Of a DNA stretch of 64,000 bases, positions 18,848 to 34,294 are shown in pieces. Location of the stretch: contig PRDH01000044.1 of NCBI GenBank assembly GCA_003345545.1, forward strand, positions 125,793-189,792. The letters run 5' to 3'. Below the pieces are notes generated by a model. That model was not told the DNA's origin. It ran no database searches and was given only the letters and a program-made list of their open reading frames with translations. This DNA is from Candidatus Thorarchaeota archaeon (GTDB taxonomy: Archaea > Asgardarchaeota > Thorarchaeia > Thorarchaeales > Thorarchaeaceae). The position numbers and the translations under genes are program-made. The first letter of the stretch is position 1. Every line of letters begins with the position of its first letter.

Positions 18848-20929
18848 TCACAACTCCAAAGTTGCAGTGCTCCCCAGACCAGCCTTGGCCACTTCAACAA
18901 TGGGAACACCTTCCCATCCCTGCACATCGGTGTGTGTGATCAACAGAATCTGTTCGAAATTGTTGTCATTCATCAGATTGGAAACAACGGACTCTCTACG
19001 AGCCTTATCAAGCCCTCCTAGCGGCTCATCAAGCATCACTGTCTTGACGCGAGGAGTGATGATGGGGCTGTTTTTCAGGGGACGAATTCTGCTCATGGTA
19101 CGGCTAATTCCAAGTCTGAGCGCGAGGCTTATTGCAGTCCTGTCTCCAAAGCTGAGCTGTGAAGTCTTCTTCCACGCTTGGTCGCGTTCATCCCATATCT
19201 TGAGAAGCAGTCCAGCGCCGGAGCGTTTCGTGGCTGGAGTTGGTTCGAGGTCGATGCGTGTGTACTGACCGTTGGTGAAGGACTGAACATACTGATTCGT
19301 TGCACTCCTGATGATGCCAATCAGTCTCTTCTGAAAGACGTAATCTGCGACAAATCCGTTCACAAGATTCCGACGTACGTATTTTGCATGCACATTGAGG
19401 TTCTCCAGTTCCTTTATCTCAGCGCCCATCTGTCGCATCTGGACTTCCTTCCCTTCCAGTTCTGAGATGAGCGTCTGTTCCTTTCGAATGTTCTCTTCGA
19501 TTTCAGAGGTTCCTCTCTTTGCCTCTCGAAGAACAGCTTCCAAGTTGCCAATCTTACTGTGGACTTCCTCAAGCGTTGATACTCCGAACTTCTTGAGGAG
19601 AGATTTCACATCAGGAATGCCTAAAGCCCTAAGCAGGTCCGACAGTTCCTGCTCGGATTTCTTAATGGATAGTCGTATGTTCTGCATATGTTCCTGAATT
19701 GACTTTATCTTCTCCAACGCATTGGTGGAGAGAGCGATGGCTGACAGCCTCTGCTCGAGCTTCTTGACTTCGATTATCTTCAGCTTCCGCTCTTTGTCAA
19801 GCTCTTTAGCACTTAATTCACCATCACGCAATGACTTCTTGTAATTGGATACAAGACTGTCACGCTCCTTCGCTGACAGAGGTTTCGAGCAGGTTGGGCA
19901 TATCGCTTCATCCTTGCCATCACGAGTTCTAGTGAGCATGTCTATTTTCTCATTCAGATCTTCGTGCATCCCGGTGACCTTGCCCATCTTCTCAGAGATG
20001 CCTGTCACATCAGCATTCAGGCTCTCCCGCTCTGAGTCTACTCGCTCCTTCTCTCTCTTGAGTGATTCTGAACGTGCTTCGATGATTGCAGCTTCAGCAT
20101 CGAGTATGCCTGCCTGCGGGAGGTTCGTGTCAATCTCTTTCTGACTGAGATCAAGTTCATGTTCTTTCTTCTCGATCTCATCAGATATTCTGCTGACTGT
20201 TTTCAGTGTGGCACTATCAGGAATACCCCTTAGCTGCTTCTCAACTGAGACTATCTCTTTACTCCGGCTCTTTATCGATGCCTCATAGTCCTTGATTCGT
20301 GCCCTATTTTGACCTATCTGCTCCTTGATATCCTCAGGTGACCGATAGTCATCACGGAGATTCTTGATTCTCGTATCAAGATTCGACTCGAAATTCTCAA
20401 GATGACTGGACATGCGATTGAGCAGCTCAATATCATAGATTTCAACCAAGAGATTTCGAAGCGCCACAGGACCTGCTGTAGATATCGTTGCAACCTCGCC
20501 CTGGCGGACCAAGAGCGTGTTCTGGGCCTGCTTCCACTCCAAGCCTAGAATCTCGTCTATCTTCGCTGCAACAGACTGAGTCTTGTCGGCAATTCTCTTC
20601 CAAGCACGCCCAGACTTTATGTAGAGTACTGCATTTGTCTTGTCTGCAGAACTGTATGACCTCTCTATCTTATACTGCGCTCCTACCACATCAAATGTCA
20701 GAGTGGCACTGCAGAATGTCGAACTGAAACTGACGAGTTCGTCATTATTCAGTCCCAGGGCGTCCGAGCCCCACAGAGCCCAGAGTATCGACTCAAGAAG
20801 AGATGACTTTCCAGTAGAGTTTGGCCCTCGTATGATTATGAGCCCATTTGGGAGATTAGATTCGTCACTCGGCAGAGTTAGCTCCCGAAATGGCTTGAAA
20901 TTGTGGACCTCTATCTTCAAGAGCTTCAT
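18848..20929 (-). CDS. rad50: Rad50/SbcC-type SMC ATPase
   Basis: Walker A GPNSTGKSS, Q-loop VRQGE, coiled coils, zinc hook CPTC, signature LSFGD, Walker B LDEP and ITH. Confidence 0.9.
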   Translation of the reverse strand: MKLLKIEVHNFKPFRELTLPSDESNLPNGLIIIRGPNSTGKSSLLESILWALWGSDALGLNNDELVSFSSTFCSATLTFDVVGAQYKIERSYSSADKTNAVLYIKSGRAWKRIADKTQSVAAKIDEILGLEWKQAQNTLLVRQGEVATISTAGPVALRNLLVEIYDIELLNRMSSHLENFESNLDTRIKNLRDDYRSPEDIKEQIGQNRARIKDYEASIKSRSKEIVSVEKQLRGIPDSATLKTVSRISDEIEKKEHELDLSQKEIDTNLPQAGILDAEAAIIEARSESLKREKERVDSERESLNADVTGISEKMGKVTGMHEDLNEKIDMLTRTRDGKDEAICPTCSKPLSAKERDSLVSNYKKSLRDGELSAKELDKERKLKIIEVKKLEQRLSAIALSTNALEKIKSIQEHMQNIRLSIKKSEQELSDLLRALGIPDVKSLLKKFGVSTLEEVHSKIGNLEAVLREAKRGTSEIEENIRKEQTLISELEGKEVQMRQMGAEIKELENLNVHAKYVRRNLVNGFVADYVFQKRLIGIIRSATNQYVQSFTNGQYTRIDLEPTPATKRSGAGLLLKIWDERDQAWKKTSQLSFGDRTAISLALRLGISRTMSRIRPLKNSPIITPRVKTVMLDEPLGGLDKARRESVVSNLMNDNNFEQILLITHTDVQGWEGVPIVEVAKAGLGSTATLEL

Positions 20930-22236
20930 GGATCATCCCTCGTGAGCGACTCGGAAGTCATCTTCCCATCTCTAGTACCGACTGAGAACTCAAGAGAAGT
21001 AACTGCAATCTTGGTGAGTATATCGAGATCTAGACTCTTGTCGACATCCAGCGTACTGAGATAGTCACGAAAGTCCTTTTCTGGGTCCTCAATTAAATAC
21101 TCGGACTCAATCTCAGGGTATGATGCTGCAGCGTACTCAGAATCGACTGATTCTTTGGTGGACCAGACAAACTGAGCTACATTGTACTCAGAGTCCTGCG
21201 ATAGCACCCTCAACCTGAAGGTTTCAAGAGCCACGCCTAGATCAAAAGCACCCACTCGGCTTGAGCCGCCCTCTAGGACAATACGAACTCGTGCGGCAGT
21301 GTGCGGGTCCCAAGGAGCAATGAGACCCTCCTCAGAGAACCAAGCGCGTAGTTTCTCCGTGACGGACTCAGCTGTATCATCCTCAGCCAACACTATCTTC
21401 TCATTCAGTACAGGACGAACAAACTCCAAGATGTGTGGAGTGACAACCGGGTCTTCATTGACCTTGATATCGACGACTAGAAATCCCTTCTTATGCTCGG
21501 ATTCGTCGAACCGCCATCTCTCAGGACAACCTGCATACCATGCCTTTTGCGACTGTTTCGCCTGTTTATGGTCGTGACCGAGAGCTATGTAGTCATAGTG
21601 CATGCTGAACACTACGTTGTAGAGAGTCTTGTCCAAATCCATACCGTGAGCAACGCCAACTGCTGGTCGCAGGCGCTCTCGCTTCTGCTGGGTAAGAATC
21701 CAATCATCAAACCTAGGAAGCATGCCTGACGACCGCAGCACTTCATGATCGATGAAGGGAAAGCAAAACACATCGAGCTTCTCATAGGAGTACGATAGTG
21801 GCTTATCCTCACGAATTGCGGCCTTGATGTCTTGTTGGGTTGCGACATCCAATCCCGGCACTGCCATCTTGAGGCTATCCAAGAGGGAAACCTCAAGCAG
21901 TCTATAGAGACCGTGATTGCCCTCGATTATTAGAACAGGAATGTGTGTCTTCTTGATGAAGCCTTGAAGCACCGATATTGCAGTTTCCTGAGCAACAACA
22001 GGGGGTTGCGACGGGTTACCCTCCCATGGGGAGTTGTAGAGGTCACCTGAGTGGACTACCAAGTCGACAGGGGGGTCGAGTGCAGCAATTCTCTCGAAGA
22101 TCTCAGTAAATCGCTCATAGAAGTCATTCTCCAAGAGCTGAGTTCTCATCTCCTGGCCCCATACATTGGGGCGAACACCATCCCGAGGTCGGGCTCCCAG
22201 ATGGGTGTCAGAGATGTGAGCGATTCGAGCGGACAT
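20926..22236 (-). CDS. mre11: Mre11/SbcD-type phosphoesterase nuclease
   Basis: HISDTHLG, HSGDLY, GNHG, YIALGHDH and YAGCPER. Overlaps the rad50 start (ATGA). Confidence 0.9.
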   Translation of the reverse strand: MSARIAHISDTHLGARPRDGVRPNVWGQEMRTQLLENDFYERFTEIFERIAALDPPVDLVVHSGDLYNSPWEGNPSQPPVVAQETAISVLQGFIKKTHIPVLIIEGNHGLYRLLEVSLLDSLKMAVPGLDVATQQDIKAAIREDKPLSYSYEKLDVFCFPFIDHEVLRSSGMLPRFDDWILTQQKRERLRPAVGVAHGMDLDKTLYNVVFSMHYDYIALGHDHKQAKQSQKAWYAGCPERWRFDESEHKKGFLVVDIKVNEDPVVTPHILEFVRPVLNEKIVLAEDDTAESVTEKLRAWFSEEGLIAPWDPHTAARVRIVLEGGSSRVGAFDLGVALETFRLRVLSQDSEYNVAQFVWSTKESVDSEYAAASYPEIESEYLIEDPEKDFRDYLSTLDVDKSLDLDILTKIAVTSLEFSVGTRDGKMTSESLTRDDP

Positions 22237-22245
22237 TAGCAGGCC

Positions 22246-24018
22246 TCATATGATATGCTCTTCTGTCTTCTTTGGCTTAGCATCCTTGTATCTATGCTTA
22301 TCCTTTTCATAGATATCATTGAAAAAGGGAATCCGAACTGGCAAGGGCAGTTCCCGATACGATGCTGTGAGAATGGCCTCACCACGAGCCATAACTCGAA
22401 ATTCGCTCTCAAAGCCAGAGATGTTCACACTGGCATTATCAATGCACGCCTTTATCTCACGTTCATTTCCCAGCCTGAGATTGATCTCGGTGTTCATCTG
22501 ACTTAGGATGACATTATCGAGAACGCTGACTTGCTGACTCACGACTAGGAGGCCAATGTTGAACTTACGTCCCTGACGAGATATGTCCTTGAACACAGAC
22601 TGCCCCCGCATCAACTCAGGATTCAGAATGGTTGGCGCCTCCTCTACAGTGACCTGAATCACAGGAAGCGACCTAGGGTCACGGACCTCGGCACTATCCC
22701 TTCCGCCGCCCTTACTATAGAACGCGCGAGCCCGTTCTTTCACCCGGTTGAAGAAACTCCTTGGAAGCCGCATCTCACCCTGACGTTCAAAGTCACCAAG
22801 ATTGCCACTGCTCTTTAGAGCTCGACGCATGTCCGACAGGGTGCGCGTGACTACTGTGGTGAGTAAGAACTGCTCTTGGTCGCCCATGAGGCTTGTGTTG
22901 ACAACAAGAATGCGACCGGTTTCCATGGCGCAATAGATGTCCTCAAGTATGGAGCTGCCTTCTCTGATGAAAATCGGAGAGCGTTCCAAGAATCTCAACC
23001 TGCGTTTTACTGCTCTGAGGGTCCCCTGTGAGTCATCACTGCTTTCATCCATATCGATTATTGTAGCTATCCAATCCTCATTGGAACCACCATTATACTG
23101 TGCGTCAATGAACGACGACATCTGCGGAGAGAACTCCATGATTGAATAGAGGTCTCTTGGCTGAATCTCAGACCATAGAATGCGAATCTCACGAGCATAC
23201 CTGCCAATTTCGCGGACAGTCGCGCTTCTGTGCGTCGTCAGATAGTAGAACTCGCCGATTACCTCGGAGCGCATTTTGTCGCTCATGTCCTCCACAATGT
23301 TTTGAATGCCAATATTGTCAACACCCTTTGCAAACTCATCATGGGGATCGATACAGAACGCCGAAACTCTGGTGCTTTTCCTATTTGGATTGCGGGCTGC
23401 ATCAAGGTTCGTGTCGATCATTGACTTGATGAGAACCATCATGAGATTGCTCTTTCCTGAACCGGTCGACCCGAAGATGCCGACATGCATGGGCAAATAC
23501 TTGCACGGGATTCTAACAGGCACATCCAGAGTGTCTTCTCCGACCTGCAGGTCGCCAACGACGATCTCTCCGTCCGTCTGACATTCAAGCATTTCACGTA
23601 CAGACTCGTCAGAGAGGCCGGGCATCGGGCGGTACACCGAGGCCAGATGGTCCGGCATGCGCCGCGGGGCCTTGAAAGTCCACTCTCCCTTCTTGTCCTT
23701 TTCCGCAAATCCAAGCATTCTTCCGCCAACTGAGAGGAGCATGTTGCGTTCAATACCTGAGAGATAAGCATCTCCTTCAACCATGAGTGTGCTTGCGACT
23801 CGGGATATATCATCTACTTGTCGAAGGTAGTTTTCTAAGTCCAAGACTCTGAAGAAGAATACCCGCTCGTGGTCATCACGTTTGGAATAGATCATGAATA
23901 TCTCGCCCACACTTATGTCGCGGTTATTCCCCATTATGCCGAGGGAAGTCTGATTTCCCACCCCGACCTTTCCATAGAGTTCACCCAGTTTTTCTCTATC
24001 CAAATCCATTACTATCAT
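22246..24018 (-). CDS. herA: HerA helicase/translocase
   Basis: HVGIFGSTGSGKS, DPHDEF, EEAP and RQGRKF; located between nurA and mre11. Confidence 0.9.
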   Translation of the reverse strand: MIVMDLDREKLGELYGKVGVGNQTSLGIMGNNRDISVGEIFMIYSKRDDHERVFFFRVLDLENYLRQVDDISRVASTLMVEGDAYLSGIERNMLLSVGGRMLGFAEKDKKGEWTFKAPRRMPDHLASVYRPMPGLSDESVREMLECQTDGEIVVGDLQVGEDTLDVPVRIPCKYLPMHVGIFGSTGSGKSNLMMVLIKSMIDTNLDAARNPNRKSTRVSAFCIDPHDEFAKGVDNIGIQNIVEDMSDKMRSEVIGEFYYLTTHRSATVREIGRYAREIRILWSEIQPRDLYSIMEFSPQMSSFIDAQYNGGSNEDWIATIIDMDESSDDSQGTLRAVKRRLRFLERSPIFIREGSSILEDIYCAMETGRILVVNTSLMGDQEQFLLTTVVTRTLSDMRRALKSSGNLGDFERQGEMRLPRSFFNRVKERARAFYSKGGGRDSAEVRDPRSLPVIQVTVEEAPTILNPELMRGQSVFKDISRQGRKFNIGLLVVSQQVSVLDNVILSQMNTEINLRLGNEREIKACIDNASVNISGFESEFRVMARGEAILTASYRELPLPVRIPFFNDIYEKDKHRYKDAKPKKTEEHII

Positions 24019-24027
24019 CTCACATTA

Positions 24028-25320
24028 TCATAGGTTGTAGTCAGTCCTCAATGATTCCGTCTTACGATCATCGAATCCTAATTCCAGACGCACGTCTCGC
24101 GCTATCTCTTTGGCAAGACGAAGGTCCTCGAAGCTTAGTTTGCAGTTCTCATGAGCTAGAGCGAGAGCGACAGGATAACCGTACCACCGAGCGTCTCTAG
24201 ACATGAACTCAAGCTCTCTGAAGAGTGCCAATTCATTCTCTCGCGTTGCCTGTGGGTCGCCATCAACGAAGATATTCTCTGACCACCAGACTCTATCAAA
24301 ATCGATTCGCGATGGTCTGTTGTCCCTTGAGAAACTATAGAGATAGGGAACAGCTAGAATCGGAGGGATGTATGCTCTGTCCTCAATGATATGGAGACCG
24401 CCACCAGGATCTTCTTTGGAAGGAAGATGGCAGAACCATTTTGCACCCTCTCCCAGCTCTTCCTTCGCTACACTCGCAATACGATGAGCAAAGGGAATTG
24501 TGTGATTCTTGCTTACTGCACATAGAATCACTTCCTTTCGACGAGCAAGAGAACAGAGGTCTCTAAGCATGAATCCACTAGGCATTGAGGGATAATGCCT
24601 GACGAAGTGCATGAAGATCGACATGGCACCGTCCAGTAACAGGTACTTCGGGCACAGGTCACTCTCAAGAAGGCGACGTGCTGCCGCATATTCGCTGACT
24701 TTTCTCAGCTCCTCATGGACTGCTGCATTTGTCAGGGTCTGTGTGCGTGAGATGAGTGACCTCATCACTTGAAGACGCGATCCAAACGGCGCGAACTCAG
24801 TGTCTGAAATATCTGTGATTGAAGATATCTTGCCACCTGTATAGTCACAGAAGAAGGGGAGGATAAGGCTGACCATATCTTTCAAGGGGTAAATCTCAGC
24901 CAACGATTCAGCCATCTTTTCTCTGGCATCATTTCTCACACTGGAATGCCAGTGCACATCGATATGGGGTTGTTCTCCAATCTCGCTCTCAACAGTGGCA
25001 CGGTCCACCATTGAAAATAATGACTCACGTTGAGTGTCGGTATTGAGCACTATAGTCGATGTACTCAATAGATGAACACGAATGTCATCAAGAGTAACAA
25101 GACTCTCTGTTCCTGAGCCATCGACAGCTGCGACCAGAAAATCTTCACTCAGAACAGTATCCGAGGGAAATGCGTGAATTCTGGCAAGCAACTTCTCCCG
25201 GATTCGTGCTTCATCCTTAACGAATTCAGCCTCATCTCTGCGATCCTGCTGATTATTGATGTCTGAAAACACAAGTTTCAGAGTGTTCCTGAACTTCTCA
25301 GCAAGTATCTTCTCAAGCAT
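24028..25320 (-). CDS. nurA: NurA 5'-3' nuclease
   Basis: AAVDGSG, LLLDG, VSK and GYPVALALAH. Start placed at MLEKI. Confidence 0.85.
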   Translation of the reverse strand: MLEKILAEKFRNTLKLVFSDINNQQDRRDEAEFVKDEARIREKLLARIHAFPSDTVLSEDFLVAAVDGSGTESLVTLDDIRVHLLSTSTIVLNTDTQRESLFSMVDRATVESEIGEQPHIDVHWHSSVRNDAREKMAESLAEIYPLKDMVSLILPFFCDYTGGKISSITDISDTEFAPFGSRLQVMRSLISRTQTLTNAAVHEELRKVSEYAAARRLLESDLCPKYLLLDGAMSIFMHFVRHYPSMPSGFMLRDLCSLARRKEVILCAVSKNHTIPFAHRIASVAKEELGEGAKWFCHLPSKEDPGGGLHIIEDRAYIPPILAVPYLYSFSRDNRPSRIDFDRVWWSENIFVDGDPQATRENELALFRELEFMSRDARWYGYPVALALAHENCKLSFEDLRLAKEIARDVRLELGFDDRKTESLRTDYNL

Positions 25321-25561
25321 GGTATCGACACTCTCCGCCGAATGGCAAGAACGCAGAGTCCTATGATTCGTTGTCTTGACCGAGTCATAAAAAGCTAGCA
25401 CTCGACCCTGAAGAGAGTCCTCTAGATGGAGAAAACCGCGCCGGATTACGGGGCAGATATGTATAGAGTCGCAATTTCCTTTTAAGGAACCATCACAACG
25501 GTTCAATGACAGAGGCAGTTCTGGCGCGACCGTGCTAGTGAAACTGACGGGAAGTGATCGT

Positions 25562-26257
25562 TTGCTGAACATCACCTACTTTGGACACACATCATTTGCA
25601 TTAGAATCAAAGGGGACAGTAGTTCTACTTAATCCAGGAATCTGGAAGAAGGAACCAATAGTCCCGAATGATTTTAGCGCGAGAGTGGTGGTGGCAACAA
25701 ACAAGGAAGATGATGCATTAGGAAACGCAAGCACAATATCTGTGAACTCAAAGGCGTGGTTCCTTGGCAACAAGGAGGCCGTAGAGAAGGCTACTGCACA
25801 GGGTGTTAAACCCTGGCTTCTTCATGTTCTTGAGAATGAGGTTCCCTATGAGATACCCAATGTCCGTTTCGTCCCCTATGCTCTCTCAAGGATTGACGAA
25901 ACGAAAGGTGGACATATTGGTAATCTCGGTCTCATGATTCAGATTGGAGGCATGAAAGTTGGCTATCTGGGGGATACAGCAATTCGCGGCCCATTCGAGC
26001 ATCTAGAAATGGATATCCTCATCACTCCTATCGGGGGAGGAGCCACATTTCCAGTGAAGGATGCGGTGAGTCTTTGCATAGACAGTAAGCCGCGTATCAG
26101 CATACCAATGCGATGGACTTCAGATGAACAGCCTGTCAAATTCTCAAAGTATCTTGAGCAGTTTGGACAGGGAATCAAGGCAGTAGTGATGATGCCAAAC
26201 CAGAAACTCACAGCTCAGTGGGCAGCAGGTAACGAGTTTAGATACGAGCTAAACTGA
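25562..26257 (+). CDS. Metallo-beta-lactamase-fold protein (UPF0173-like) with degenerate metal ligands
   Basis: ITYFGHTSF, YLGDT, PIGG and IPM are present, but THxHxDH is replaced by TNKEDDA. Confidence 0.75.
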   Translation: MLNITYFGHTSFALESKGTVVLLNPGIWKKEPIVPNDFSARVVVATNKEDDALGNASTISVNSKAWFLGNKEAVEKATAQGVKPWLLHVLENEVPYEIPNVRFVPYALSRIDETKGGHIGNLGLMIQIGGMKVGYLGDTAIRGPFEHLEMDILITPIGGGATFPVKDAVSLCIDSKPRISIPMRWTSDEQPVKFSKYLEQFGQGIKAVVMMPNQKLTAQWAAGNEFRYELN

Positions 26258-26333: not shown

Positions 26334-28121
26334 ATGGGTGACAATGATAAGAAGAATGTGATTATTGACCTCGAAGAGTCCGAAAAAGCTCAACTTGGTA
26401 GACTTAGCGAACTCGAGAACGTTGAAACCTCAGGAGTTCTGAGCGTCATCAATACGTCAAAGAGGTGCCGTATTTGGAATGTGAAGGTACACCTTGGCAA
26501 CTCTCGTGGTAACACTGATATCGGCAAAGAACCACTCGCAGCAGGAGAAATTGATATTGGTGGAAAATGGGAGAAGCGATACAAGGTAACAACGCGTGCA
26601 CCAATGGTGACTCTCTCAGAGATTTATGATACCTGCGGAGACCTTGAGACTGAAGGACCTCACTGGGCATATGTCAGCGGCAAAGATAACCAGGTGAAAA
26701 TCAAGATATCCATCAAGAATGAAACCGATGGAGAAATCGATAACATTATTCTCAACAAGACTATTCCACCGGAATTATCAGATATTGAAATCCTCTCAGC
26801 AAAGTCAGGTAAGGCAGAGTACGATGAAGGCACCAAACAGATTGTCTGGAAGGACTTTGTCATCTACCCACACGAAGACACAACCCTTGTCATCAAAGCG
26901 ACAGGAAGAGTGGAGAGTACTGATTTAAGGAGTGGAGGCGAAATCGTCCTTACCTACAGGGGAGAAGGACAGCAGAGATCAGTCTTAGATCCCGCTCTCA
27001 CAGCGCTCACTGAGTTTCTGATGGGAATTGAAACTGCTGAAACAAAACCGAATCAGTGGGAGTGCACGCTCGAATGCTCTAACGAGAGCGACCTGATAGT
27101 GCGACTTGACAAGGCTGTAGTCTTCGTGACACCTGAAGGCGGTGGCGAAAAGAAGAAGATGCTCAATGCATCACCCTCCGTAGAGATGGCACCAAATCAA
27201 CAATGGAAAGCCTCCTTCAAGGTGGCGAGCCAGAATACTCCAAAATGCAAACAGGACCTCCTCTACACGCCCGTCAGTGTTGTTACCAAGAGAGTGCTTG
27301 GCACAATTGAGAAGTCGCCTCAGATGGTGTCGGTGTGTAAGATTGATTGCACAAAGACATTCGACCCGCCTTCTGTGAGCAGCTTCGACAAGACCCCGGT
27401 TGAAGTCACTATCGAGATGACCAATACTGGAACAGCTCGATTCAATGAGATTGTCATCACGGATAACCTCCCAGACGACGTCATGCCTCCTACGAGTGAG
27501 CATGTTACGGTTTGGATCAAGGGAAAGAAGTACACCGGGCCATATGAATTCATCATTGATCCCAAGAACCAAGACCCCGAAAAGCAACACAAAATCACAT
27601 TCAAGGTCGAAGGTCTGAAGGACTCCGTAGGTGAACTAGAGCCTGGTGAGAGTGTCAAGATCAACTATGCAGTGATGGCATGGAGAAACAGACCTGAGAA
27701 GGAATATCCCTCACCGATTACCTGTGGCGCAAACACATACCCTGCTGGAATTCAGACCGAGATCAGCAGTCCCAAGGATGGCTACAAGCTTGGTGTCATC
27801 TACAAGAAACGTGCAATCTCGACGAAGAAGGCTATCAACAAGGGTTCGAGCGCAGGGCAATATGTCGTGGTACTCGTTGTGTCAAACAATGGAGAAGTGA
27901 CAGCAGAGAATATCCAGATGACTGATTGGATACCTGCCGCATTCGAGTATGTTTCTACTGAACCTGAGGATGATCAGCCCGTTCTGGCAAAGGTGTCTGA
28001 TGGGACCAACATGGTCTGGAACTGGGCACGCATGAATCCTGGCGACCAAAAGAAAATCAAGGTCTCTGTGCAGGGTGAGGGCGAGTATGAGCGCCGTGAG
28101 CCTGAAGTGACTTCAATCTAG
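26334..28121 (+). CDS. All-beta cytosolic protein: mu-adaptin homology (MHD)-like N-terminus plus DUF11/Ig-like repeats
   Basis: No signal peptide or TM segment. The N-terminal strand pattern is like adaptin mu C-terminal domains, followed by NTG..ITDNLP and V.NNG....TDWIP..FEYVS Ig-like units. Confidence 0.65.
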   Translation: MGDNDKKNVIIDLEESEKAQLGRLSELENVETSGVLSVINTSKRCRIWNVKVHLGNSRGNTDIGKEPLAAGEIDIGGKWEKRYKVTTRAPMVTLSEIYDTCGDLETEGPHWAYVSGKDNQVKIKISIKNETDGEIDNIILNKTIPPELSDIEILSAKSGKAEYDEGTKQIVWKDFVIYPHEDTTLVIKATGRVESTDLRSGGEIVLTYRGEGQQRSVLDPALTALTEFLMGIETAETKPNQWECTLECSNESDLIVRLDKAVVFVTPEGGGEKKKMLNASPSVEMAPNQQWKASFKVASQNTPKCKQDLLYTPVSVVTKRVLGTIEKSPQMVSVCKIDCTKTFDPPSVSSFDKTPVEVTIEMTNTGTARFNEIVITDNLPDDVMPPTSEHVTVWIKGKKYTGPYEFIIDPKNQDPEKQHKITFKVEGLKDSVGELEPGESVKINYAVMAWRNRPEKEYPSPITCGANTYPAGIQTEISSPKDGYKLGVIYKKRAISTKKAINKGSSAGQYVVVLVVSNNGEVTAENIQMTDWIPAAFEYVSTEPEDDQPVLAKVSDGTNMVWNWARMNPGDQKKIKVSVQGEGEYERREPEVTSI

Positions 28122-28184: not shown

Positions 28185-28523
28185 TTACTCTCGCTCTATT
28201 TCTTCGAGCTCTTTTCTTGTTTCTGCAAGCGCAGCATCAATATCCTCTAGTGGTATGTAGTCCTCTTCTTCCTCAGGCTTGTGAGTGTCTAACCTGTACA
28301 GTACCTTGAAACCGTTCAGTGTCTTATGGATTGCATCTGCAATCTCCACGATTACAGTCCCAAGTTTTGACTCCTTGAGTTCTTCATCGGTATGTTCGTA
28401 TACAAAATCATATGCTCCCTTGACCGGTTTGAAACCCAATTGGAGCAGTTTATGCACTACTCTTGATGGTGATGCACCTTCACTATAGAACCAGACTTGG
28501 ACATGTGTAACATACCTAGACAT
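28185..28523 (-). CDS. Small conserved-looking hypothetical protein
   Basis: SEGASPS.V..KL..LGFKPVKGAYDFVY alpha/beta pattern with an acidic helical tail. Confidence 0.7.
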   Translation of the reverse strand: MSRYVTHVQVWFYSEGASPSRVVHKLLQLGFKPVKGAYDFVYEHTDEELKESKLGTVIVEIADAIHKTLNGFKVLYRLDTHKPEEEEDYIPLEDIDAALAETRKELEEIERE

Positions 28524-28600
28524 GATTGACAACCTCATCTTGGCCGGATACAGGCCTCGCTCTGCACCTGACATATGACTTCTGCTATTAGTCTTTCGAC

Positions 28601-29683
28601 TCAGGTATGAGTCTGCAGGGAGATATCCTCATGTTCAAGTACATGGAGCCATAGCAATCTGCAGTCACAGGCAAGACTCTCGAGTGACCTTACATCTTGG
28701 TCTAGAGAGAATCTACGAATTGCATCCAGAATTGGCGCGTCACACTTCCCACAGTTGTGCGCGCCTCTGCTTTTTCCTGCAGCTACTGGGTCACAGACAA
28801 TATTGATTGTTCCCTCTGCAATCCTATGTGCATGACGCAAGACCTCGACCACACTCCACAACCATGGTGGTCTGAACTTCCCCTTTTCCCATAGGTCTTC
28901 AACAAGGGTGCTCCGCTGCACATTCACAGGATTCAGGGAGATTGTTGACACTCCGAGAGCCAAGGCATCGTTTATCGTGTTCTGAGCATCAAGAAGGGCT
29001 GACCTCTCAGTCAGGAATGGAGGTTTCAACAGAACATATGCGCGCGTTCCGATGCCGTATCGCTTGGCGGTGTTTACAGAGTCAGCGAATGAGCGGAAGT
29101 TGAAGTTCTTGTTGATACAGACAGACCTCACAATATCGCTACTGCTCTCCAGGCCTATACCAAGCTCTACCCGACGGTCTCCAAGGATTCTTCGAACCTC
29201 AGTAAGAACCGAATCTGTCACATACTCCGGTCTTGACTCCAAGACTACCTCCTTGATTCGATCATCATTCGAGATAGACTCTAGCATCTGATTTCGTGTA
29301 GAAGCGGGTATCTCATCTGAGTCCAAGAAACTGCCACTCGTGTATATCTTCACAGAGAGTGGCGCAGTATGTTTATCGAGCTTACTCATTGCTGATTGAA
29401 ACTGAAGGAGAAACTCTTCCTCTGTCGGATTCTTGTCTGTGCCATCCAAGAGGTAGCTGCACATGGTGCACCCACCCTCGCTGCTTCGTGCATGGGCACA
29501 TCCAATGGAGGAAAGCACAATCGAGAGAGCAGTCCCTTGGATTGAACCTATCCGACTAGGTGAAGTCCATGCAGCAGAGGGCCTAGTGAGGCTCTTCGAC
29601 GGCCTCTCAACAATAGACTCACCGCGCGCTCGAATCGACGCCTGCTTCACAGCATTCCGAATCTGCTCAGATAGAGTGTCCAT
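28601..29683 (-). CDS. Radical SAM archaeosine biosynthesis protein RaSEA
   Basis: GC..(x8)..GGCTMC, KIYTSGSFLD, ESRPE, KPPFLTE, RPPWLWS and RGAHNCGKCD; coupled to arcS. Confidence 0.9.
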   Translation of the reverse strand: MDTLSEQIRNAVKQASIRARGESIVERPSKSLTRPSAAWTSPSRIGSIQGTALSIVLSSIGCAHARSSEGGCTMCSYLLDGTDKNPTEEEFLLQFQSAMSKLDKHTAPLSVKIYTSGSFLDSDEIPASTRNQMLESISNDDRIKEVVLESRPEYVTDSVLTEVRRILGDRRVELGIGLESSSDIVRSVCINKNFNFRSFADSVNTAKRYGIGTRAYVLLKPPFLTERSALLDAQNTINDALALGVSTISLNPVNVQRSTLVEDLWEKGKFRPPWLWSVVEVLRHAHRIAEGTINIVCDPVAAGKSRGAHNCGKCDAPILDAIRRFSLDQDVRSLESLACDCRLLWLHVLEHEDISLQTHT

Positions 29684-31626
29684 TAGCCGCCCTCCTCTTT
29701 GTGTCGTACACTCACGGCGCGACCACGCTCCAGTTCAGACATCTCTCTACCGGACATCTCACTCCGACCAACAGCGGTCACCTCATCATGACTGTTGATC
29801 ACAATGACCTCGTCTCCCGGTCGAATAGATTGGTCTGCGTCTCTAACACCGACGGCAAAGATGGATCCGCCCTTGACAGATGGAGCGTCCAGGTGAACCC
29901 AGTAGCGATTCAGTGGTGCTAGGCGTCTTGCGCCACCAAGTGTCAATGATAACAGACCCGTATCAGCCACGTAAGAACAGACCTGCTCCTTCTGGACTTG
30001 ACACAGTATTTGCCTGTAGGGCTTTCCCATGAGCTTGGCGCCTTCAGGGACCAAGGCATCACCAGCTCCTGGGCCAAACTGAAAGTCAGCAGTCGCCCGC
30101 ACAATCTCCTCCAGCTCCTGCGGGCGTGAGCTCCTGATGGGCAAGATGCTCTTCAGATCAACCAAGGTCTCTTGCAGAGACTCCCGAGACTCCCAGCTTG
30201 TAGGTGAGGCTTCCGGACTAGTATAGATTATGCTCTGAGCTATTCTGTGCTCTGCAGTCTTCACAATACCAAGATAGCCGCCTGAAACATGAGCAACCAC
30301 AACAACGTCCGAATCGAACTTCTCAAGATGCGTAGCAAGGGCTTCGGCTGCTAGGTTCGTTTCCTCTGTATCCCATTCACCAGTGACAGGAATATCATAG
30401 TTTGCGGCAGGGTATATGCGCTCCAGTTCACGGGGTACTAGTCCAAGCGGTGATGTCAGGATTATCTGTGCAATCTGGGACGTTGCGCCACTCAACGACG
30501 CTTCTATGGTTTCCAGGAAGCGCTTATGAGACTTTGAGTCAGAGTATGGTTTTCGAGCAGAACAAGGCAGTAGCAGAGCTACCTTCTTGCCACTAGGCGG
30601 ACGATATCGATTGGCTATGTACTCCCTGAATCTCCTGACTGCAGGAGCATTATAGGACTCAGGGCCAATAAGAGGAACAACTGGGGCTCCGCTTGAAGGG
30701 GTGAATTCCTCCACGAACGAGTAGGCCTGCCTGTCAACTCTGCGAAGAATCGATGCGTGAGCTGGACTATAGTGAGTAGTGGATTCGACGAGCCAGCGAA
30801 GACGCCCCGAATTCATGGCATCAATAGCCTCAGAGAGCACGGAGGCATACACGTTCACATTATGCTGCAGAAGGACATCCGTCACCTCAGAGGGACCGAT
30901 GTCCTCAAGATGCTGACAGCTTGTGCAGGCGCAATACCTATGATGCTCGTCAGCACGAATTGTTTCAGCTCCATTGTGCCAGAGACGCTGGTGTTTTGCT
31001 GCAGCCTCTTGAGCGTGGCCTATGTCAATCAGATCAAAGCCCATGTAGTAGAGAAGTGGTATCGTGCCGGGCGCTATCCTGCCGAGCGCAACAGCCAGCC
31101 AAGATAAGGGCAGATGGCTACGTGAGAGCAGAGCATTGAGGTCCGAGTTTCCTAGCATTCCATCAAAGGTAAAGGCACCTGCTCGAACGCCTCGCGAGTG
31201 AGAGTCCTTCAGGTAAGAGGCAAGCGCTTCTGGCCCGATTTCCTCAGGGACACGTAGAATGACACGTGAAGGAGCGATATGAGAACGAATCTCATCAATT
31301 ACGCTCAACTGATGTTTCAGCATGAGAACTCCAGCATCATCTCCGAGAGCAGAGAACGCGGGCAGTGAAGGAAGAAGTAGTGAGTCTGAGTCCCCTACTT
31401 CTCCCTTGAGGGCATCTAGGGATGTTTCAAATGGCAGTGCTAGTAGGTGAGGCTCTGAAGAGTGCGACATGGCTCTTCCAATCGTCTTGTACGGTAGAAA
31501 GCGGTCATCCGACAGGCATGCACTGGTGAGGGCAGGGGTTTCGTAGACTTGAGTTCCCATGATGTATTCTCCAATTCTAGCTGGACCATCGTGTCCGCGA
31601 CCAATTCTGAACTCGGTCAACTTCAT
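29683..31626 (-). CDS. arcS: Archaeosine synthase subunit ArcS (TgtA2) with PUA domain
   Basis: DGPARIG, LLPCSARKPYS.SKSH, TSPLGLVPRELE..YPAA.YDIPVTG.W and a C-terminal PUA domain. Confidence 0.9.
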   Translation of the reverse strand: MKLTEFRIGRGHDGPARIGEYIMGTQVYETPALTSACLSDDRFLPYKTIGRAMSHSSEPHLLALPFETSLDALKGEVGDSDSLLLPSLPAFSALGDDAGVLMLKHQLSVIDEIRSHIAPSRVILRVPEEIGPEALASYLKDSHSRGVRAGAFTFDGMLGNSDLNALLSRSHLPLSWLAVALGRIAPGTIPLLYYMGFDLIDIGHAQEAAAKHQRLWHNGAETIRADEHHRYCACTSCQHLEDIGPSEVTDVLLQHNVNVYASVLSEAIDAMNSGRLRWLVESTTHYSPAHASILRRVDRQAYSFVEEFTPSSGAPVVPLIGPESYNAPAVRRFREYIANRYRPPSGKKVALLLPCSARKPYSDSKSHKRFLETIEASLSGATSQIAQIILTSPLGLVPRELERIYPAANYDIPVTGEWDTEETNLAAEALATHLEKFDSDVVVVAHVSGGYLGIVKTAEHRIAQSIIYTSPEASPTSWESRESLQETLVDLKSILPIRSSRPQELEEIVRATADFQFGPGAGDALVPEGAKLMGKPYRQILCQVQKEQVCSYVADTGLLSLTLGGARRLAPLNRYWVHLDAPSVKGGSIFAVGVRDADQSIRPGDEVIVINSHDEVTAVGRSEMSGREMSELERGRAVSVRHKEEGG

Positions 31627-31636
31627 TCATCTCCTG

Positions 31637-34294
31637 CTATACTAGGGGCTGGTATCCCACGTAACCCTCAGTGTCTACCTTGGTCTCTGCCCTTGACAGT
31701 ATCTTCTCAACGCTCTCAAGAGCTCCTATCTTGAACAGCGGACTGTTATTGTTACCGCAATTGTATGAGTATGTGCACAGAGGACATCCATCGAGGGTGT
31801 TGCAATCGCAGCTCTCTAGTATCCTCTTTGCCCTTCTGAATGCCTCATCTAGTTTTCCAAAGAGGAGTTTTGATGCGCCATTTCCTCCTGGGCTTCCATC
31901 GTAGACAAAGATGATTCCTGAATCGCCCATTGAAACACCACCGATTTCCCGTGTGCCACCTCCTGTAAACATGTTACTAGATTCGATGAGAACGTGTTCG
32001 ACAGCGTGGTAGGTGCCCCCATAGAGTTCAGCAGGTCCCATCACGGCTCTTTCAATGGACGCATACTTTCCTGCGATGTAGTCATTCACTGATTTGCTGG
32101 GCTCAGGTGCAGTAAACGCGAATCCACGTGTCTGATATGTATACAATAGGGGGGTCAGCAGATTCTGCTTGCCAATTATATGCCCACTCCTAGTCTCCTT
32201 TGTCACATAGCCAAACACGGTCTGAGTCATCTCAAGATTGCAGTAGACAGCATCGAGGCCGAGAATCTTGGTCCTCTCGACTATGTCTAGTATCTTGGGC
32301 ATGGTATAGTATAGCGGTTTTGTGTGGGTGCTCCGGTCCCCATGCAACACCACTGTAGCCCTTCCCAACCCAGTCGTGTATTTGAAGTCGACAGACAGGT
32401 AGTTCTTGCCGCCGTGAAGGTAGATTGCTCCTGGGTGCAACTCTTGAGCGGCCATAGGCATCGAACGCTCACCCAGTCCTCTCTTATCAAGACGTATCTG
32501 AACGGTGTCGCCAATCCCTCTTATATTGTAGCTACGCCATGCCTTTCTTGCCCTCTCATCATCAGCAATACGGATTGTTCCGTCCCCAAGTTGCCTGACG
32601 AGACCGTCGTCTGACAGCTTTTGAAGAACCCGATGATGTCTTGAGAACTGAGCTGCATTGAGCCTACCACTCATGGCCGCTGCAATCAATTGATAGTAGC
32701 CGACCACTTCATTCTCGGGTTCTGTGTATGCAGCATCGATATCCGTGAAGTATTTGTCAGGTTCATGCCTGTAGAAGGAGGAGATGGGATCATTTTCACG
32801 GAGTGCAAGGACAGCCACACTCTCCTGTCCTTTTCTACCCGCCCGCCCGATTCGTTGTGTCAGTCGCGTTATTGAGACAATCATGCTCACGACGCTGTTC
32901 AGGTCGCCAATGTCTATCCCCAGTTCAAGGGTAGGTGTTGAAACAATGACTGGTAGCTGCCCGGAACGGAAGCTGTCCTCAACGTTACTTCTGTGTTTCT
33001 TTGAGAGGCCGGCTCTATGAACCATTGATTTCACGCCACTCTCGCCTAGGAGCATGTTCAAGACCTCAGCCTCAGAATGCGTATTTCCGAACACGAGTGT
33101 CTTGAACTGGCCAGACTGTAGCGAGGAGACAATGTCAACAATCATGCCGTACTTGCTTCTCGTCTCAGGATAGTAGATGAGAAAGTGTACAGGACCTCTC
33201 TTGGCGTTCTTTGACTCTATGAGCCTGACCTCTGAGTCAAAGAGAACTTCAGCAAACTCCTTCGGATTGGCTACTGTAGCTGAGGCTCCAATCTTCTGGA
33301 ACTTCCCAGATTCCATTTCGAGCCGCTTCATGATGAAATACACATTTGCTCCCATCGATCCGGTATACAGATGAATCTCATCGAGAACGACAAACTTCAC
33401 GGTTCGAAGAAGAGGCGTCAGGCGCGACTGAGACCACCCAAGGTGATAGTGCAGGACATCGGGGTTGGTCAGCAGGATATCAGGAGGGCTGGCATAGATC
33501 TTGGTTCTGGCATCTTCAGAGATGTCACCATCAAAGAGGGACACTGTAAAACCAGATGCCTTACCAAGTTCCTTGATCTTGTCAAACTGGTCCCTCGCCA
33601 GAGCTTTTGTTGGATAGATGAGAAGTGCTCTCACTCCAGGATTCTTGAATGACTCCTGAACCGAGATGAGAATCTGCCTGATGATGGGTAAGATGAATCC
33701 TTCAGTCTTCCCCTGTGCCGTGGGCGCGACGATGACAACATCCTCACCATTGTTGATGGCATTGTAGGACTCCTCTTGGAACTTGTAGAGAGTGGCAATC
33801 CCTCTGGAGTGCAGAAGCTCCTTGAGTCGTGTGGGTACACTAAGATCATCCGTCTTGATGCCATATTCGGCATCTGTTGAGGGCATGTATTTGTACTTGA
33901 CAAGATAATCGCGACCGGACAGCACAAGTGAGCGTAGTGCCTCAGGAAGGGCATCCAGGGTGCCACCACCTTGTTCTACGATTCTCCTCACCGCCACTTC
34001 AGACTGGACTCTCGTAGAAACGCCTTTCTTGCGGCGTTTCGTCTTGGGAGTATCGGCTCCGCTGCCCAGATACTCTCTCCTCTGCAGGTCAGATTTTGCA
34101 GTGTCATCAGAGAGTCCTTCTCGCTTGATGACCTCGGTATATGCCTCATAGGCATCAAAGAGGTCTTTCCTGCTTCCGTCTACCATGACTTCGACGGCAC
34201 AAGAGGAACACCGTACATACCAGCCCCCTGCCTCTTTCGTGAAGTCAAGACGCGAACCACACTTAGAGCAGTGAAGGACCGGCACAGTACTCAC
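31637..34294 (-). CDS. SF2 DEAH helicase, Hrq1/MrfA (DUF1998) family, with an N-terminal zinc ribbon
   Basis: APTAQGKT, YPTKALARDQ, DEIH, SAT, TLELGIDIG, QRIGRAGR and C-terminal CDC..GCPLC. Confidence 0.9.
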   Translation of the reverse strand: MSTVPVLHCSKCGSRLDFTKEAGGWYVRCSSCAVEVMVDGSRKDLFDAYEAYTEVIKREGLSDDTAKSDLQRREYLGSGADTPKTKRRKKGVSTRVQSEVAVRRIVEQGGGTLDALPEALRSLVLSGRDYLVKYKYMPSTDAEYGIKTDDLSVPTRLKELLHSRGIATLYKFQEESYNAINNGEDVVIVAPTAQGKTEGFILPIIRQILISVQESFKNPGVRALLIYPTKALARDQFDKIKELGKASGFTVSLFDGDISEDARTKIYASPPDILLTNPDVLHYHLGWSQSRLTPLLRTVKFVVLDEIHLYTGSMGANVYFIMKRLEMESGKFQKIGASATVANPKEFAEVLFDSEVRLIESKNAKRGPVHFLIYYPETRSKYGMIVDIVSSLQSGQFKTLVFGNTHSEAEVLNMLLGESGVKSMVHRAGLSKKHRSNVEDSFRSGQLPVIVSTPTLELGIDIGDLNSVVSMIVSITRLTQRIGRAGRKGQESVAVLALRENDPISSFYRHEPDKYFTDIDAAYTEPENEVVGYYQLIAAAMSGRLNAAQFSRHHRVLQKLSDDGLVRQLGDGTIRIADDERARKAWRSYNIRGIGDTVQIRLDKRGLGERSMPMAAQELHPGAIYLHGGKNYLSVDFKYTTGLGRATVVLHGDRSTHTKPLYYTMPKILDIVERTKILGLDAVYCNLEMTQTVFGYVTKETRSGHIIGKQNLLTPLLYTYQTRGFAFTAPEPSKSVNDYIAGKYASIERAVMGPAELYGGTYHAVEHVLIESSNMFTGGGTREIGGVSMGDSGIIFVYDGSPGGNGASKLLFGKLDEAFRRAKRILESCDCNTLDGCPLCTYSYNCGNNNSPLFKIGALESVEKILSRAETKVDTEGYVGYQPLV

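Follow-up and report, generated by a model that had tools for sequence, protein, structure and literature searches.

A gene on the plus strand at positions 26334..28121 of the window (the whole 64,000-nucleotide stretch of DNA that was analysed) encodes a soluble, all-beta protein of 595 amino acids, the front half of which is, as judged from its predicted structure and from family sequence profiles, a genuine mu-homology domain (MHD), homologous to the MHD of the AP mu subunits, delta-COP, and the muniscins. The open reading frame is intact, and the MHD that it specifies holds an inserted domain and is followed by two DUF11/CnaA-type domains.

The gene and its product

A homologue search with the 595-residue protein yielded 201 matches. 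Identity to it is 62–87% among the 120 listed (the protein itself excluded), and the named relatives among the matches listed are mostly from Thorarchaeota, as are the majority, by title, of the 74 loci located in a scan of species genomes. The gene is present as a single copy in its own genome, and no paralogue was found there or in the plasmids searched. Neither a signal peptide nor a membrane helix was detected in the protein, the top 19-residue hydropathy value being 1.02, which bears out the claim of the initial annotation that a secretion signal is absent and supports a cytosolic location for this copy; the sequence segments quoted in that annotation are likewise all present. The protein is acidic (pI 5.15), with pI values of 4.4–5.6 among 39 diverse family members. 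In three metatranscriptome datasets, 12 short contigs lie over the region and cover the genes of both strands alike, demonstrating neither transcription nor an operon.

The predicted mu-homology domain

The AlphaFold2 model of the protein is all-beta, with a pLDDT of 94.4. When aligned by VIA-align, residues 4/5–329 of the model matched the whole of the mu2 MHD (168–435) with a Z of 18.4–18.7 and an rmsd of 3.2 Å, with 225–229 residues aligned (225 of 245), and the corresponding Z values for other MHDs were 17.9 for mu1, 17.5 for mu4, 17.4 for mu3, and 16.6 for both delta-COP and SGIP1. In a fold search independent of Foldseek, the top 10 of 48,161 chains were all MHDs (Z 17.6–14.6). Foldseek with the full model placed long Ig arrays on top, but with poor TM-scores and rmsd values of 17–55 Å, while its mu chains had TM-scores of 0.64–0.69 against the full model when normalised by target. 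Structural sequence identity to the MHDs is only 9–15%. A plain linear tandem of independent Ig domains, the outcome that would have spoken against the MHD proposal, was not obtained; in the predicted model, the two beta-sandwich subdomains are instead intercalated and the final strand lies back in subdomain A, which supports the MHD topology.

The domain as modelled occupies residues 4–329, insert included (26343..27320, plus strand). Its subdomain B, residues ~91–215 (26604..26978, plus strand), is a DUF11-type module by Pfam, matches to PDB sequences, and hhalign. As residue 397 of mu3 aligns at ~227 and residue 418 at 329, so that 21 residues of mu3 span ~100 in the archaeal protein, an inserted beta domain can be placed at ~228–313 (27015..27272, plus strand). 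This inserted beta-sandwich (module C, ~85 residues) is absent from eukaryotic MHDs and, with boundaries drawn from the strand list, would sit in the last hairpin of the MHD, before the last strand. Searched alone against PDB sequences, it gave no significant match (best E 0.14). The initial annotation had confined the MHD-like region to residues 1–230; a whole MHD fold is indeed predicted, but the extent was too short, and the domain runs to ~329 because of the residues inserted near its end.

At the sequence level, the Pfam profile Adap_comp_sub (PF00928) matches residues 111–173 with an E of 1.7e-4 and 21.4 bits, which is below the curated cut-off of 31.6, and the same profile was matched at E<=0.01 by 28 of 46 thorarchaeotal orthologues; the relative P0132, at 34.9 bits, is the sole one noted above the cut-off. 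A single-sequence search of the protein against PDB sequences returned nothing relevant. With a profile built from 148 family sequences, the top match in the PDB sequences was AP-3 mu (E 2.6e-4), and a profile of residues 5–230 matched mu3, mu1 (E 0.009), and delta-COP (E 0.012), the delta-COP match being colinear over profile positions 4–195, the longest colinear profile match. An atlas search with residues 1–330 returned only leads below 0.9, eukaryotic Adap_comp_sub clusters being among them. Together with the AlphaFold2 model, the Pfam, orthologue, and profile matches (AP-3 mu, mu1, delta-COP) indicate that the likeness to mu first read from short colinear segments exceeds chance. The similarity scores single out no one eukaryotic MHD class: the AP-1/2/3/4 mu domains are alike in the whole two-subdomain fold (Z 17.4–18.7), and the MHDs of delta-COP and of the muniscins SGIP1 and Syp1 follow with Z values of 16.6 and 14.6–16.6, respectively.

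Tail domains and internal repeats

Beyond the MHD, domain D (residues ~331–490; 27324..27803, plus strand) is CnaA-pilin/cohesin-like, and domain E (residues ~493–595; 27810..28118, plus strand) is a DUF11-type repeat of subdomain B; folded separately, the tail reached a pLDDT of 95.1. Structure matches to domain D include SpaD (Z 14.1), TTHA1873 (13.9), BcpA (13.7), and CLIPPER (11.0), and those to domain E include a carbohydrate-binding module (Z 10.7) as well as residues 282–391 of mu2, which belong to its subdomain B (Z 10.4). Pfam DUF11 was matched by three stretches of the protein, corresponding to modules B, D, and E (E 5e-16), and hhalign within the protein identified these three as internal repeats (B–E P 97%, B–D P 91%); A and C are possibly also repeats, as profile comparison gave P 71%. 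As subdomain B of the MHD is itself a DUF11-type module, the MHD may have arisen by the nesting of such modules.

The tail had been likened to adaptin appendage or DUF11 sandwiches, of which the latter comparison fits better. The appendage likeness appears weak: domain E matches the gamma-adaptin ear profile with an E of 0.0027, adaptin appendages are absent among the best 50 matches to the tail model (which are mostly matches to domain D), and pilin, cohesin, and DUF11 folds match better. Domains D and E contain conserved Lys/Asp pairs (K341/D377 and K499/D531), and N467 is found in 23 of 39 sequences, but no Asn is conserved at the position which we take a CLIPPER isopeptide to require, and the isopeptide triad thus appears incomplete. 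Although B, D, and E match DUF11, the protein differs from DUF11/CLIPPER adhesin stalks in that it is not exported, has a fixed architecture, and forms no tandem stalk.

Cargo pocket and adaptor features

In the passages of PMC5694535 that describe it, the YxxPhi pocket of mu2 consists of Phe174, Asp176, Lys203, Trp421, and Arg423. Asp12 of the archaeal protein (26367..26369, plus strand) stands in the register of the mu1/mu2 pocket Asp (mu2 Asp176), as deduced from a HMMER alignment with the mu1 VFLDVIE stretch (a 0.2-bit segment) and from the structural offset of residue 4 to 168. It is kept in 96% of the 46 thorarchaeotal orthologues, but an Asp occurs in just 21 of 44 mixed sequences; Glu15, which is also in mu register, is kept in 41 of the 44. 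The equivalent of mu2 Phe174 is Ile10, and residues 304–329, where the equivalent of Trp421 would lie, contain no Trp. Of the two pocket residues proposed for inspection, the Asp is therefore present in this copy, though not generally in the family, and the Trp is absent. The pocket is degenerate, and canonical tyrosine-signal binding is unlikely.

The protein also departs from AP mu in its ~85-residue insert, its two extra tail domains, and its acidity. No longin domain is fused to its N-terminus, the MHD starting at residue 4, and unlike delta-COP and the muniscins it has neither longin nor F-BAR. The sigma/longin small-chain profile PF01217 returned no match in the genome, in a search that was silent everywhere, and Adaptin_N produced only weak, HEAT-like genome matches of a kind also obtained in 3 of 14 control prokaryotes; HEAT-like genes with such weak matches lie elsewhere in the genome (G000:C26:125890-127083). 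With the pocket Trp and Phe missing, the Asp in fewer than half of the mixed sequences, an acidic protein, and no recurrent trafficking neighbour, the proposal of a cargo-sorting adaptor or coat-like scaffold is unproven.

Gene neighbourhood and the predicted partner

Directly upstream and co-oriented, separated by a 76-bp gap, lies a metallo-beta-lactamase-fold gene (25532..26257, plus strand; likely start near 25562) of the Lactamase_B_3 type. Its product shares the fold of PRK00685-type metal-dependent hydrolases (57 bits, against a cut-off of 144) but differs from them in that the thorarchaeotal copies are without the HxHxDH motif and the later His ligands; the copies in families f15 and f16 keep the ligands. 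The two genes are co-oriented and −107 to 79 bp apart in 66 thorarchaeotal loci, and a gene of this type also adjoins the scaffold gene, as the MHD-containing gene will be called, in families f2, f15, and f16. The C-terminal motif W-x-A-G-x-E-F of the upstream protein (26214-26234, plus strand) is invariant across 63 sequences and lies outside the interface described below.

A model of the complex between the two proteins scored 0.69, the best of three controls scoring 0.00, and the runs agreed in at least 92% of contacts, while the partner pLDDT did not fall below 89. Of 157 solved complexes, 116 reach the docking mark, as do 2 of 215 mismatched pairs, a calibration that is only roughly valid with the alignments used. 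The predicted interface comprises domain D and part of E, does not involve the MHD, and has at its core the DKTP motif of residues 352–355 (27387..27398, plus strand). Interface positions are 95% conserved in the 46 thorarchaeotal orthologues as against 80% overall. In five loci outside family f1 that have the partner gene, interface identity to the 595-residue protein is 0.59 (background 0.36), and in 33 loci without it 0.23 (background 0.25). DKTP itself occurs in all 10 loci where the hydrolase-like gene adjoins the scaffold gene and in none of 33 where it does not; the ten fall in one clade, so this correlation amounts to a single inherited event. The predicted binding renders doubtful the earlier description of the protein as stand-alone.

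The surrounding context was surveyed in 40 regions from other Asgard families, 38 of which hold a complete scaffold copy. The one recurrent neighbour is the co-oriented metallo-beta-lactamase-fold gene, and across these 38 diverse loci no trafficking gene recurs beside the scaffold; the 121 neighbours include scattered ARPC4-like, E2, Rag/Roc GTPase, roadblock, and SNAP/TPR genes, none of which recurs across families. Gene neighbourhoods, which had been suggested as a check, vary and give no clue to trafficking. In loci of family f16 (L076:4376-4939 and L078:3731-4135), an ARPC4-like gene (E 4e-7) stands two genes upstream of the scaffold, and a gene resembling E2 ubiquitin-conjugating enzymes lies some genes downstream. 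A small neighbour, cluster c5 (L093:9617-9907), is found in five f22 loci; the member scanned has no Pfam match at 1e-4, and the cluster presumably resembles gelsolin repeats.

In Thorarchaeota, the pair is flanked on the minus strand by a Rad50-Mre11-HerA-NurA cluster (18848-25575), ordinary archaeal double-strand-break repair genes found beside the scaffold in most loci, and by a 129-residue gene (28185-28574, minus strand; likely ~117 residues) with no Pfam or NCBIfam match, which is present in 65 of 74 thorarchaeotal loci. The latter travels with the archaeosine genes RaSEA (TIGR01210) and ArcS (28601-31626, minus strand), after which a DEAD/H helicase gene (31637-34294) follows on the same strand. 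Both members of the pair are missing from five thorarchaeotal genomes of two genera (G385–G389, 90–99% complete), in which NurA, the 129-residue gene, and RaSEA persist together on a single contig, flanking the vacant site; in two of the five, nothing fills the gap. A functional link to the flanking genes was rejected because this opposite-strand synteny block persists when the MHD pair is lost.

Distribution and earlier reports

A scaffold profile search of 400 Asgard genomes at E<=1e-10 found the family in 355 genomes, in 77 of 90 high-quality genomes, and in 80 of 85 genera, and the family is near-core in Asgard archaea. Among the 355, 348 matched at 3e-49 or better, one at 1e-27, and six weakly (1e-11 to 1e-14); these six are probably unrelated DUF11 repeats. 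Many genomes of f21 and f22 carry 2–5 scaffold matches each, and the sources further include Jordarchaeales, Njordarchaeia, Hodarchaeales, Heimdallarchaeota, Borrarchaeum, and Ranarchaeia. Since the full core is also found in Poseidoniales/Thalassarchaeaceae, the family is not restricted to Asgard. The upstream-type gene has strong matches in 85 of the 400 genomes, or 88 with three weaker f28 matches.

The novelty that had been left for checking does not extend to the family as such, which is already catalogued. According to passages of Eme et al. 2023 (PMC10307638), Asgard archaea possess the C-terminal domain of mu in unfused form, with AP-domain homologues “sparsely distributed”, and their Supplementary Table 3 contains 44 rows of “Adap_comp_sub (PF00928)” candidate eukaryotic signature proteins. 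Among these rows, 27 of the 34 compared by eye resemble the scaffold family, and the thorarchaeotal rows B59_G1, Thor_24, GBS33_23710, and maxbin2_13 are plainly orthologous on the same inspection. With the identification already published, the gene in the window is one more orthologue. Neither its structure nor its insert, tail, or partner is mentioned in those passages of Eme et al. 2023 (PMC10307638), and no structural or partner description of the family was found in the openly accessible literature searched. Adaptor homologues are likewise patchy in the portion of Koestlbacher et al. (10.1101/2024.07.03.601958) consulted. The near-core distribution revises the sparse picture given in those passages of Eme et al. 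2023.

Function and origin

The reading that we prefer, in which we place about as much belief as doubt, is that of a cytoplasmic scaffold, a true MHD homologue, that links clients to a hydrolase-like subunit which is dead in Thorarchaeota, and that is not part of a heterotetrameric coat. Five Ig-like modules would build this protein-interaction scaffold: A and B would interlock into the MHD, module C would be inserted in its last hairpin, and D and E would form the tail. In Thorarchaeota, and likewise in two further Asgard families, the upstream product is predicted to dock on domain D via the DKTP loop; since the thorarchaeotal partner is without metal ligands, it would serve as a structural or regulatory pseudo-enzyme subunit, and since the partner in the two other families keeps them, the scaffold there would carry an active hydrolase. 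The free end of the MHD would most likely bind peptide motifs in other proteins, cytoplasmic or close to the membrane, rather than canonical YxxPhi signals, so that the scaffold would work like an MHD adaptor in linking client to enzyme-like subunit, outside a heterotetrameric coat. The predicted fold, the sequence-level matches to mu3, mu1, and delta-COP, the lack of an export signal, the gene pairing and joint loss, and the complex model with its conserved interface speak for this reading. Against it, adjacent genes can be co-deleted without their products interacting, and the five losses represent two genera. The partner, found in 85 genomes as against 355 for the scaffold, cannot explain the general role of the family, ~270 Asgard genomes having the scaffold without the partner gene.

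It is possible, albeit doubtful, that the protein is instead a proto-coat cargo adaptor, its MHD binding the tails of membrane proteins and being recruited with small GTPases and HEAT or longin proteins to bend or sort membrane. The complete predicted MHD fold, the near-core distribution with several matches per genome in many f21/f22 members, Asp12 in pocket register, the weak gamma-adaptin ear match, and the N-terminal HEAT_2 repeats of the distant members P0183 and P0239 would all fit; however, the pocket Trp and Phe are missing and the Asp is inconstant, diverse members are acidic, neither a longin fusion nor a recurrent trafficking neighbour was found, five thorarchaeotal genomes dispense with the protein, the family extends to Poseidoniales, and the HEAT matches are short PBS-lyase-type repeats, not adaptin trunks. 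Unlikely, in our view, is a structural polymer or adhesin-like role, whereby the DUF11/CnaA modules form a cytoplasmic filament or lattice, or derive from surface-adhesin stalks, with an MHD free of cargo. DUF11 is, in passages of 10.1101/2025.04.25.650565, the stalk domain CLIPPER of fibrillar adhesins. The best matches to domain D are pilin CnaA domains of Gram-positive bacteria (Z 13–14), and the distant P0256 and P0193 have a signal-peptide- or anchor-like N-terminal segment, but the protein of the window has no export signal, the five-module architecture is fixed with no variable tandem repeats, and the Lys/Asp pairs of D and E are kept with no conserved Asn at the presumed CLIPPER isopeptide position. 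That the likeness to MHDs arose by convergence, with nested Ig modules imitating the fold in the absence of common ancestry, is very improbable and already largely refuted. The low structural identity, the Pfam score under its cut-off, and sequence matches that fall mostly on subdomain B, a generic DUF11-like module, could be read in that way, yet for each class of MHD the match runs through both subdomains, beginning at the first strand and ending at the last, the profile match to delta-COP is colinear, and mu subunits, not adhesins, head the PDB sequence matches.

A lineage can be sketched which, taken jointly in all its parts, we regard as rather unlikely: the eukaryotic MHD would derive from this near-core Asgard scaffold of nested DUF11/CLIPPER-type Ig modules, with loss of the insert and tail and fusion of the MHD to a longin in eukaryotes; the archaeal protein would already have been a peptide-motif adaptor at membranes; and HEAT-fused paralogues would prefigure the mu-adaptin pairing, with the thorarchaeotal scaffold delivering a pseudo-hydrolase subunit. 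To the question of how vesicle-coat adaptors arose, the family contributes a compact, soluble, and well-conserved archaeal MHD for which a specific partner and interface are predicted. Should the scaffold bind sorting-like peptides, cargo recognition would be older than the eukaryotes; should it not, the MHD fold would have been co-opted from an unrelated scaffold of archaea.

Divergent relatives

A midpoint-rooted FastTree phylogeny of 84 sequences separates a mainly compact subfamily, which includes the protein of the window, from one with N-terminal extensions; to the latter belong the clade of marine group II, the HEAT fusions, and two forms that may be exported. The marine group II (Poseidoniales) sequence P0195 and its relatives, of 760–1160 residues, are nested among Asgard sequences in the tree, and several marine group II copies have long proline- or acid-rich N-termini. 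In the distant P0256, which has four close relatives, and in P0193, a complete module lies behind an N-terminal hydrophobic segment resembling a signal peptide or anchor, and both are possibly exported. The HEAT_2 repeats of P0183 and P0239 are fused in front of the module; L097:6055-8265 groups with P0239 in the tree and is listed with these fusions. Lastly, the Borrarchaeum copy (P0219; L105:6157-10167) is fused at its C-terminus to a NACHT-like ATPase.
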